From Escherichia coli (GTDB taxonomy: Bacteria > Pseudomonadota > Gammaproteobacteria > Enterobacterales > Enterobacteriaceae), in the NCBI RefSeq assembly GCF_048403405.1, contig NZ_CP183129.1: a stretch of DNA of 64,000 nucleotides, one strand, 5' to 3'. The translations under genes and the position numbers were made by a program. Under the pieces are notes generated by a model. That model saw nothing but the letters and a program-made list of their open reading frames with translations, made no database searches and was not told the DNA's origin. How positions within the stretch are numbered: the stretch's first letter is position 1; each line of letters starts with the position of its first letter. Positions 16,797-19,156 of this stretch are shown here, one piece after another.

Positions 16797-18146
16797 TTAG
16801 ATAGCCCAGCCACCCGCATAGAAGGTCACCAGCGCCACAGCGATAACGACCGTACCGATGTTCAACTTGCGCCATTCGCCGGAAACCAGACGACCAATCA
16901 CCAGAGTCGCGAAGCCGATCATGATGCCTGTTACGATGTTACAGGTCAGCACGATGAATACCGCCGTAACCAGACCCGCCATCGCATCAACAAAATCAGC
17001 AAAGTCGATTTTCGCCACGTTACTCAGCATCAGCAGGCCAACGTACATCAGCGCCGGAGCCGTTGCATACCCCGGAACGAGGTAAGAGAGCGGAGAGAGG
17101 AACAGAATCAGCAGGAACAGCACGCCAACGGTGATAGCCGTCAACCCGGTTTTACCGCCCGCCGCCGTACCCGCCGCAGACTCGATGTATACCGCTGCCG
17201 GAGCTGCACCCACCAGGCCAGAGAAAACGCTGCTCATGGAGTCAGTGGTCAGTGCTTTACCGCCGTCGATGATCTGCCCATCTTTATCCAGCAGGTTCGC
17301 CTGACCGGCGACGGCGCGGATAGTTCCGGTGGCATCAAATACTGCCGTCATCACCAGCGCCAGAACGCTTGGCAGGACTACAGGATTCAGCGCGCCCATA
17401 ATGTCCAGGCTGCCAATCAGTGAATTGCCGTTTTCATCGCTCAATGAAGGCATGGCGAAAACGCCGGAGAAATGGACGTTAGGATCGAAGATCAAACCGA
17501 CAATTGAGATACCGATAATGGTCAGCAGAATGCCACCAGGGACTTTCAGTTTTTCCAGGCCGATGATCACCGCCAGACCTACCAGTGACATAATCACCGG
17601 GAAGGTCGCGAAATCACCCAGCGCAACGGGCAGACCATCAAGCGGGTTTTTAATCACCAGACCGACACCATTAGCGGCAATGAGCAGCAGGAACAGACCG
17701 ATACCGATCCCCGTGCCGTGCGCCACACCGTGCGGCAAGTTGCGCAAAATCCAGCTACGGATACCCGTGGCAGAAATTACCGTAAACAGTACACCCATCA
17801 GGAACACGGCACCCAGCGCGACAGGTACGCTAATATGTTGCCCCAGCACCAGACTGAATGCGGTAAACGCCGTCAGGGAGATGGCGCAACCAATCGCCAA
17901 CGGCAGATTAGCCCACAGACCCATCACGATAGAACCGAGTCCGGCAACCAGACAGGTCGCAACGAAAACTGCCGCAGGCGGGAAGCCTGCTTTACCCAAC
18001 ATGCCTGGAACGACGATAACCGAGTAGACCATCGCCAGAAATGTTGTTAACCCGGCAACCACTTCCTGACGGACAGTGCTTCCACGTTGTGAAATTTTAA
18101 ACCAGGCGTCGAGTGAACCGCCGGTACGCGCTGATGGCGTAGACAT
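16797..18146 (-). CDS. ghxP: guanine/hypoxanthine permease GhxP (YjcD), NCS2 family
   Basis: 449-aa polytopic membrane ORF; PurR-box-like sites upstream. Confidence 0.9.
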
Positions 18147-18260
18147 AAGAAAACATCCCCTGAGAGTTTAATTTTCGTCAAGATGCGTGGCGGACAATCC
18201 CCTGCCAGCGAAACGTTATCTTCCTGCTCCAGGTTTGCGACAAATTGGTGCGTCGCAAAA

Positions 18261-18276
18261 AAGCAAACGTTTAGCT
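18261..18276. promoter_or_regulatory. candidate PurR operator upstream of ghxP
   Basis: AAGCAAACGTTTAGCT contains the GCAAACGTTT core of the PurR box, about 120 bp upstream of ghxP start. Confidence 0.45.
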
Positions 18277-18402
18277 CCGCGCATACAAAACGGGTGGTAA
18301 AAAAAGCAAACGATTATCCGGCGATCATAGCGGCTTTTTCAACCGAAGTTTGCTGCTTTTTTCTCTTTTATTGTCTTGACGATGAAAAACCAGGCAATTG
18401 AT

Positions 18403-18418
18403 GCGCAAACGTTATCGT
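18403..18418. promoter_or_regulatory. second, weaker PurR-box-like site
   Basis: GCGCAAACGTTATCGT, partial match to the PurR consensus. Confidence 0.3.
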
Positions 18419-18559
18419 CGATGCGCAAGATTGCAGCGTTATCGAGCCGCATACCGTTCAGGATTGCGATAAAAAATCGTCTGAGATGACAAAAATATTG
18501 CGGCTAAAAAGTGTACTTTTACACTGGCGAAGAAACGCCGGTGACATACAATTAAAGCA

Positions 18560-18703
18560 TCAACACCAACCGGAACCTCCACCACGTGCTCGAATGAGGT
18601 GTGTTGACGTCGGGGGAAACCCTCCTGTGTACCAGCGGGATAGAGAGAAAGACAAAGACCGGAAAACAAACTAAAGCGCCCTTGTGGCGCTTTAGTTTTG
18701 TTC
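18560..18703 (+). ncRNA. sraL: candidate small RNA SraL (RyjA) in the ghxP-soxR intergenic region
   Basis: ORF-free stretch ending in a GC-rich hairpin (18668..18698) followed by a U-rich tract on the + strand, overlapping the soxR stop codon; position matches my recollection of SraL; 5' end is a guess. Confidence 0.4.
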
Positions 18704-19156
18704 ATCTTCCAGCAAGCGTGCGCCGGTACCTTCTTCTCCTAAGCGGTCGCCCGGGTTACGCAATGGGCAATCACTGCGCGAAAGGCAGCCACAACCAATA
18801 CATCCGTCCAGCTCGTCACGCAGCGCCACTAAGGTATGAATGCGCCGATCCAACTCTTCTCGCCATTGGGACGAAAGCTGTTTCCACTCTTTCGCACTTA
18901 ATGTATGCCCTTCGGGCAACACGCCAAATGCTTCACGAATGGTCGCCAGCGGAATGCCAATACGCTGAGCAATTTTGATGATTGCGACATATCGCAACAC
19001 ATCACGTTTATATCGCCGCTGATTGCCACTATTACGGATACTGCTAATCAACCCTTTGCTTTCATAGAAATGCAGCGCCGATACCGCCACACCGCTGCGT
19101 TTTGCCACTTCGCCGGGGGTTAGCAGCGCTTTAATGCGGGGTAATTTCTTTTCCAT
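18692..19156 (-). CDS. soxR: redox-sensing MerR-family regulator SoxR
   Basis: 154 aa, MerR HTH N-terminus and C-terminal [12 protein letters not shown] [2Fe-2S] cluster motif. Confidence 0.95.

Follow-up and report, generated by a model that had tools for sequence, protein, structure and literature searches.

What, if anything, lies between ghxP and soxR in the genome of Escherichia coli? We asked this of a 64,000-nucleotide stretch of E. coli DNA (the window), in which ghxP (formerly yjcD) occupies 16797-18146 on the - strand and soxR occupies 18692-19156, also on the - strand, with its stop codon TAA at 18692-18694. Both coding sequences come from the list of ORFs and from annotation, which for soxR includes an identical locus and K-12. 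The E. coli records that were annotated by PGAP contain only soxR and ghxP here, and because the standard PGAP annotation omits the small RNA that we describe below, automated readers see an "empty" intergenic region of 545 bp. A sequence-only reading of this DNA had proposed that the region between soxR and yjcD holds the small RNA SraL (RyjA). It also described the region as 545 bp long and free of ORFs: the size is exact (18147-18691), but mechanical ORFs of 62, 72, and 88 amino acids do cross it.

When the whole window was scanned against Rfam, sraL (RF01408) was found at 18559-18699 on the + strand, scoring 153.3 bits (threshold, 39; E = 1.1e-34). The match spans positions 1-142 of the 142 positions of the model, so it is not truncated. 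These 141 nucleotides, which begin with A18559, are identical at 141 of 141 positions to ryjA (b4459) of E. coli K-12 MG1655. In the MG1655 record, the ncRNA ryjA is at 4277926-4278066 and soxR is at 4277469-4277933, an overlap of 8 nucleotides, and the window has the same overlap: the last codons of soxR and its stop overlap the final 8 nucleotides of sraL. The neighbors (soxR and ghxP) and the -10 element of the promoter are also as in K-12. Three single bases differ from K-12, namely 18504, 18513, and 18538 (-55, -46, and -21 from the start); all are upstream of the gene, and none is inside the -10 or -35 hexamers.

The sequence-only reading was therefore right that this is SraL and that it converges with soxR, as the full-length Rfam match and the identity with b4459 both indicate. 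Its boundaries, given as 18560-18703, move to 18559-18699 according to Rfam and the K-12 annotation. We met no evidence that contradicts the identification. SraL is a known small RNA and an ordinary feature; its annotation in E. coli K-12 dates back to 2001, so the identification is in itself of little weight. We are nearly certain of the explanation that combines an SraL gene, a sigma-S-type promoter, a hairpin at which the RNA ends, action in trans, and a predicted second use of that hairpin as the terminator of soxR.

The locus is present in nearly all E. coli. A 661-bp region (18100-18760) was found in 5420 of 5426 complete genomes, and in 5419 genomes a single match spans 80% or more of it. 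The 186-bp stretch that includes the promoter, the gene, and the tail (18520-18705) has an identity of 99% or more in 4731 E. coli genomes. A few genomes are unusual. In CB7286 (H2), the match to the 661-bp query is in two pieces that span 839 bp, which points to about 180 bp of DNA inserted in the intergenic region, and in TUM2820 (H12), just 74% of the query is covered, in two places. We also saw three plasmid-borne copies of the region in E. coli.

To look beyond E. coli, we searched one genome per species for the motifs CCGGAACCTCC and GGGGGAAACCC with 24-40 nucleotides between them, which gave 99 loci. All 99 have a full-length homologue of sraL, and they represent about 25 genera of Enterobacteriaceae, including Escherichia, Citrobacter, Salmonella, Klebsiella, Raoultella, Enterobacter, Leclercia, Lelliottia, Kosakonia, Phytobacter, Cedecea, Buttiauxella, Atlantibacter, Trabulsiella, Shimwellia, and Yokenella. 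The length of the RNA ranges from 130 to 149 nucleotides among species. Two of the loci are on contigs with surprising labels. One, labelled "MAG: Bacillota bacterium", has an sraL that is identical to that of E. coli and a soxR that is 98.7% identical; the other, labelled "Chryseobacterium sp.", has an enterobacterial ghxP-GST-sraL-soxR locus. These assemblies are probably contaminated or mislabelled.

We used an alignment of 100 sequences to study conservation and covariation. Under the consensus structure from Rfam, 94.8% of the cells of the alignment are paired, versus 37-52% if the partners are slid by 1-3 columns. Ten pairs show compensatory changes, and none of 500 shuffles reached 10. 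The covariation is located in helix 1 (4 of 7 pairs) and in helix 6 (4 of 6 pairs). In the window, on the + strand, the 5' domain (18560-18607) is closed by helix 1 (18560-18566/18601-18607), in which 95.9% of the cells are paired. The central domain (18609-18653) includes helix 4 (18609-18611/18651-18653), helix 5 (GGG/CCC, at 18613-18615/18620-18622 once the Rfam structure is mapped onto the sequence), and helix 6 (18623-18628/18635-18640). Helices 4 and 5 do not vary in the alignment.

Some of the unpaired sequence is conserved too. The 5' domain contains the conserved CCGGAACCUCC (18570-18580), which is in upper case in the Rfam consensus, but the two search motifs (which include this one) carry no weight here, because their invariance in our alignment follows from the search pattern. 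The A/G-rich linker AUAGAGAGAAAGACAAAGACCGGAAAAC (18641-18667, + strand) is more informative. It is mostly unpaired, except that 18651-18653 belong to helix 4, and its A-rich end lies just 5' of the terminator. In the 100 species, its GATAGAG.GAAAGACAAAGACCGG columns show little or no variation, and they are outside of the search pattern. The terminator stem is nearly invariant as well, though it is also outside of the search pattern.

The promoter can be read from the sequence. On the + strand, the -10 hexamer TACAAT (18547-18552) is followed by a TAA motif (18553-18555), and the last T of the hexamer is 7 nucleotides before the start site, A18559. Across the 100 species, A18548, A18550, and T18552 are invariant. 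A degenerate -35-like hexamer, CTGGCG (18524-18529), is 17 nucleotides upstream of the -10; it is in a conserved ACTGGC block in which G18527 is invariant. A scan for sigma-70 promoters did not call the promoter of sraL, because this -35 is too degenerate, so we placed it by conservation and by its spacing to the start site. A conserved -10 and TAA motif were described previously, along with a weak -35 that is typical of sigma-S promoters (PMC3753932). In Salmonella, SraL was about 500-fold lower in an rpoS mutant, the activity of a promoter-lacZ fusion was RpoS-dependent, and there was a ChIP signal for RpoS at the promoter (PMC3753932). In E. coli, RyjA is listed among the RpoS-regulated small RNAs (10.1101/2024.06.20.599902), the first nucleotide of RyjA is A, and the transcript from its own promoter is not NAD-capped (PMC12956327). 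Going mostly by the work in Salmonella, we expect that sraL would be transcribed in stationary phase from a sigma-S-type promoter in this strain as well.

Could the hairpin be merely the terminator of soxR, with the 110 nucleotides upstream of it being conserved ghxP/soxR intergenic DNA that does not encode a functional RNA? The PGAP-annotated genomes of E. coli do lack a feature here, and the z-score for the MFE of the whole RNA is modest, at just -1.99. Such a terminator would not explain the full-length match to the covariance model, the compensatory changes in helices 1 and 6, or a conserved -10 that is correctly spaced from the start. Also, the transcript has been seen on Northern blots from E. 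coli and Salmonella (PMC3753932, PMC2190706, PMC6315103, PMC12956327), and a stationary-phase transcript of about 140 nucleotides is reported for the identical K-12 sequence, as cited in PMC3753932 and PMC12956327. The published detection of this transcript refutes the idea that there is only a terminator, and we give it practically no credence.

A different concern is that the region might encode a small protein, from either the 62-amino-acid ORF on the + strand (18486-18674) or the 88-amino-acid ORF on the - strand (18439-18705). These ORFs exist mechanically, and 66 of 100 homologues have a stop-free frame on the - strand across the small RNA. An open frame is to be expected, because the - strand is rich in C and U and poor in stop codons. 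None of the 62-, 72-, and 88-amino-acid ORFs matches Pfam, and the upstream part of the 62-amino-acid ORF is in poorly conserved sequence upstream of the -35. Furthermore, the steps in length of the small RNA (130-149 nucleotides) are often not multiples of three, so a reading frame is not conserved. We rejected all three small proteins because they lack Pfam matches and because of these length steps, and it is very improbable that the region encodes one of them.

At the 3' end of SraL, the sequence-only reading had pointed out a GCGCC-CTTGT-GGCGC hairpin within an extended stem that is followed by U-rich sequence on the + strand. A repeat finder and a terminator scan locate it at 18668-18698, with arms at 18668-18680 and 18686-18698, a CTTGT loop, and the GCGCC/GGCGC core. 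The arms, AAACTAAAGCGCC and GGCGCTTTAGTTT, form 13 perfect pairs. On the + strand, the folding energy is -20.5 kcal/mol (z = -5.7), and none of 200 dinucleotide shuffles was as stable; on the - strand, it is -22.6 kcal/mol (z = -5.2). The surrounding sequence (18660-18703) reads CGGAAAACAAACTAAAGCGCCCTTGTGGCGCTTTAGTTTTGTTC, and the + strand tail after the hairpin is TTTAGTTTTGTT. The K-12 annotation places the 3' end of the small RNA at the base that is equivalent to 18699, and transcription of SraL would end at this 13-bp hairpin.

The same DNA could also serve soxR. There are U-rich tails in both directions, UUUAGUUUUGUU on the + strand and UUUAGUUUGUUUUCC on the - strand, so the arrangement of A-tract, stem, and U-tract is symmetric, and this symmetry implies that the hairpin can act as an intrinsic terminator for the converging soxR. 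The predicted 3' end of the soxR mRNA is in the U-rich tail GUUUUCC (18661-18667, - strand). The hairpin was picked up by a simple terminator scan on just the + strand, because the tail on the - strand has four Ts and the rule of the scan is five Ts in eight bases. In a permissive Rfam scan, the - strand hits the terminator part of the sraL model at 23.7 bits, which is below the threshold; this weak match arises because the design of the hairpin is nearly palindromic. An earlier study (PMC2190706, from 2007) described the SraL terminator as overlapping the terminator of soxR on the opposite strand. Both this report and the anatomy on the two strands favor the bidirectional terminator that had been suggested from the sequence, and the A-tract/stem/T-tract anatomy supports a two-way intrinsic terminator. 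The stop codon of soxR does lie inside the 3' arm of the hairpin, as had also been noticed, so it appears that in Escherichia the hairpin would both terminate soxR and supply its stop codon. Bidirectional terminators between convergent genes likewise consist of one GC-rich hairpin that is flanked by an A-tract and a T-tract. What differs from the ordinary case, to judge by the sequence, is that one of the two units is a small RNA and that the hairpin carries the stop codon of the protein-coding gene.

Is this arrangement conserved? The two genes are convergent, sraL facing soxR, in 98 of 99 loci, but how far they overlap is specific to each lineage, and the distance from the 3' end of the small RNA to the soxR stop ranges from -30 to +511 nucleotides. 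The stop overlaps the small RNA in 23 of the 98 loci and is within 3 nucleotides of it in 53 of the 98; the rest have spacers of 7-511 nucleotides. The distance is -30 in Kosakonia and its relatives, where soxR uses a TAG in the distal arm; -8 in Escherichia, C. amalonaticus, and a few others, with the stop in the 3' arm; -2 to +3 in Klebsiella, Raoultella, and many others; +7 to +149 in the remaining loci; and +511 in one locus. In five loci from Kosakonia and its relatives, the soxR frame runs 30 nucleotides into the 3' end of the small RNA, right through the hairpin. Where we examined loci with spacers of at least 20 nucleotides, the sraL hairpin was usually the sole terminator-like hairpin downstream of soxR, but this was a crude scan of the - strand that missed some visible hairpins (for example, in Enterobacter), so these counts are indicative only. 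In the two Enterobacter loci whose spacers we read, the roughly 100 nucleotides between soxR and the sraL terminator hold a REP-like palindrome, GCCGGGTAAGCG...TGTAGGCCGG.

The exception is Citrobacter sedlakii (L060, 698-1742), in which sraL is intact and soxR is not adjacent. Instead, a CidR-like gene of the LysR family converges on sraL, and it ends with ...AAA AAC TAA in the same arm of the hairpin. This locus implies that the small RNA can persist without soxR as its partner, and also that the hairpin provides a stop codon and a terminator for whatever gene faces sraL.

As for the other neighbor, all 71 loci with enough sequence to tell have ghxP upstream of sraL. In 77 of 99 loci, ghxP and sraL are separated by a GST-like gene of about 230 amino acids (for example, at 2468-3160 of L048), which is absent from Escherichia and from the Citrobacter freundii group. 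We looked for a remnant of it in the intergenic region of the window (18147-18558), and none was detectable. In Salmonella, the GST-like gene STM4267 is the neighbor of SraL (PMC3753932). The SraL of Salmonella enterica belongs to the same family and has the same structure, the same sigma-S-type promoter features, and the same convergent soxR (PMC3753932). It differs in having this upstream neighbor, which Escherichia lacks; in the position of the soxR stop, which is 31 nucleotides past the 3' end of the small RNA (L064) rather than inside the hairpin; and by several substitutions, which fall in helix 1 and the variable loop.

In the window, the promoter region of ghxP fills the rest of the intergenic space. 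Upstream of ghxP (18200-18420), there are GCAAACG(T/A)T boxes at 18263, 18306, and 18405 and a degenerate copy near 18210, and there is just one further copy of this box in the 64-kb window. We take these boxes to resemble half-sites of the PurR box, which would presumably fit the promoter of a purine transporter. Farther away in the window, the Rfam scan matched two other features on the + strand: a lysine riboswitch (RF00168) at 61007-61203, with 99.5 bits, and the enterobacterial small RNA STnc430 (RF02053) at 58963-59112, with 77.7 bits.

What does SraL do? We expect that in this strain, as mostly inferred from Salmonella, SraL would be a trans-acting small RNA that is induced by sigma-S and acts by base pairing. 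It would repress the mRNA of tig (trigger factor) and would shield the leader of rho from premature Rho-dependent termination. The data about targets and protein partners are almost entirely from Salmonella. There, tig is repressed by pairing with its 5' UTR, which was supported by compensatory mutations (PMC3753932), and SraL pairs with the rho leader and blocks premature Rho-dependent termination with support from ProQ, which was also validated in Salmonella (PMC6582626, PMC7192607, PMC12360218).

We found no computational support for tig or rho as targets in E. coli. When SraL was folded with the K-12 tig and rho leaders over their whole length, we obtained meaningless full-length duplexes that were no better than for shuffled sequences. 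A sliding scan of 24-nucleotide duplexes gave -20.3 kcal/mol for tig and -21.8 kcal/mol for rho, against a mean of about -20.7 for shuffles, and 20 of 40 (tig) and 13 of 40 (rho) shuffled small RNAs matched these energies. When we chose by hand a C/U-rich part of the rho leader as the partner of the linker, the pairing reached -19.9 kcal/mol, which was not significant relative to shuffled controls. The pairing site of SraL has been described as one that "overlaps a putative rut site" (PMC12360218), and the stretch of rho that we picked fits this description.

The likely protein partner is ProQ. On entry into stationary phase, SraL accounted for about 50% or more of the RNA that was bound to ProQ (PMC8136791), and SraL may be the dominant ligand of ProQ at this stage in our strain too. 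ProQ ligands are enriched for an A-rich stretch that is 5' of the terminator and pairs with the U-tail, a feature that disfavors Hfq (PMC7367173). SraL has such an A-rich 5' flank, AAAACAAACUAAA. RNAs of the ProQ class, such as malM-3', cspE-3', and RaiZ, have a long terminator stem and a U-tail that is paired with an upstream A-tract, and SraL has a comparable pair, AAACUAAA/UUUAGUUU, by which it would resemble them; the set of RNAs examined in PMC7367173 did not include SraL. If so, the A-tract that makes the terminator work in two directions would also be what identifies RNAs of the ProQ class. In Salmonella, there were 0 reads of sraL in a co-immunoprecipitation with Hfq (PMC2515195), so caution is needed with the title of the Rfam family, "Hfq binding RNA". 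As for turnover, PAP I, PNPase, and RNase III affect SraL (PMC2190706), and it is probably polyadenylated and degraded by PNPase and the degradosome.

Does SraL also act in cis? The sequence-only reading had raised possible antisense interplay with the 3' end of soxR. If the soxR mRNA ends around 18661-18667, then SraL and the soxR mRNA would share about 36-39 complementary nucleotides, all of them in the hairpin and its tails. These 3' ends could form a duplex or a kissing complex that would be cut by RNase III, and the stability of the soxR mRNA would then be tied to stationary phase. The complementarity is perfect by construction and the overlap includes 8 nucleotides of coding sequence, the convergent layout is retained in 98 of 99 loci, and the band pattern of SraL is altered in the absence of RNase III, which led the authors of PMC2190706 to propose a cut in the terminator where it overlaps that of soxR. 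Nevertheless, we think that regulation in cis is unlikely. Both of the complementary segments are locked in hairpins (-20.5 and -22.6 kcal/mol), the soxR stop is within the small RNA in just 23 of 98 loci while spacers elsewhere reach 149 and 511 nucleotides, and C. sedlakii has an intact sraL without an adjoining soxR. Also, we found no report in the literature of an effect of SraL on soxR. These points argue against antisense action in cis as the main function of SraL, and we continue to favor a small RNA that acts in trans and shares its terminator.

In the terminator stem, 7 of 13 pairs never vary in the 100 species, and 4 others keep their commonest pair in 96-99 of 100. The core of the stem, CUAAAGCGCC/GGCGCUUUAG, is invariant in sequence across about 25 genera. 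(In columns 216-250 of the alignment, which correspond to 18668-18698, the core CTAAAGCGCC/GGCGCTTTAG is invariant while the loop varies in both length and sequence.) Given that helix 1 covaries freely, the invariance of the stem core is beyond what structure alone explains. We cannot attribute it to pairing in cis, because complementarity between the two strands is automatic. Dual use on both strands or sequence-specific recognition by a protein might be the cause. A more ambitious idea is that the hairpin is more than a structural terminator, in that ProQ or another factor recognizes its sequence specifically, or that the hairpins of SraL and soxR interact, leading to processing by RNase III and to coupling between sigma-S activity and the expression of SoxR. 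We regard this idea as unlikely.

The layout of the locus has a practical consequence. Because the small RNA, the stop codon of soxR, and the presumed terminator of soxR are all in one hairpin, a full deletion of sraL in Escherichia alters soxR as well. C-terminal truncations of SoxR are constitutively active. In the genome-reduced strain E. coli DGF-298, the removal of ryjA shortened soxR, and the SoxS regulon was constitutively active; the authors discounted a link between the two (PMC11481515). As truncations of this kind are constitutive, the link between the shortened soxR and the SoxS regulon in DGF-298 may merit re-examination.
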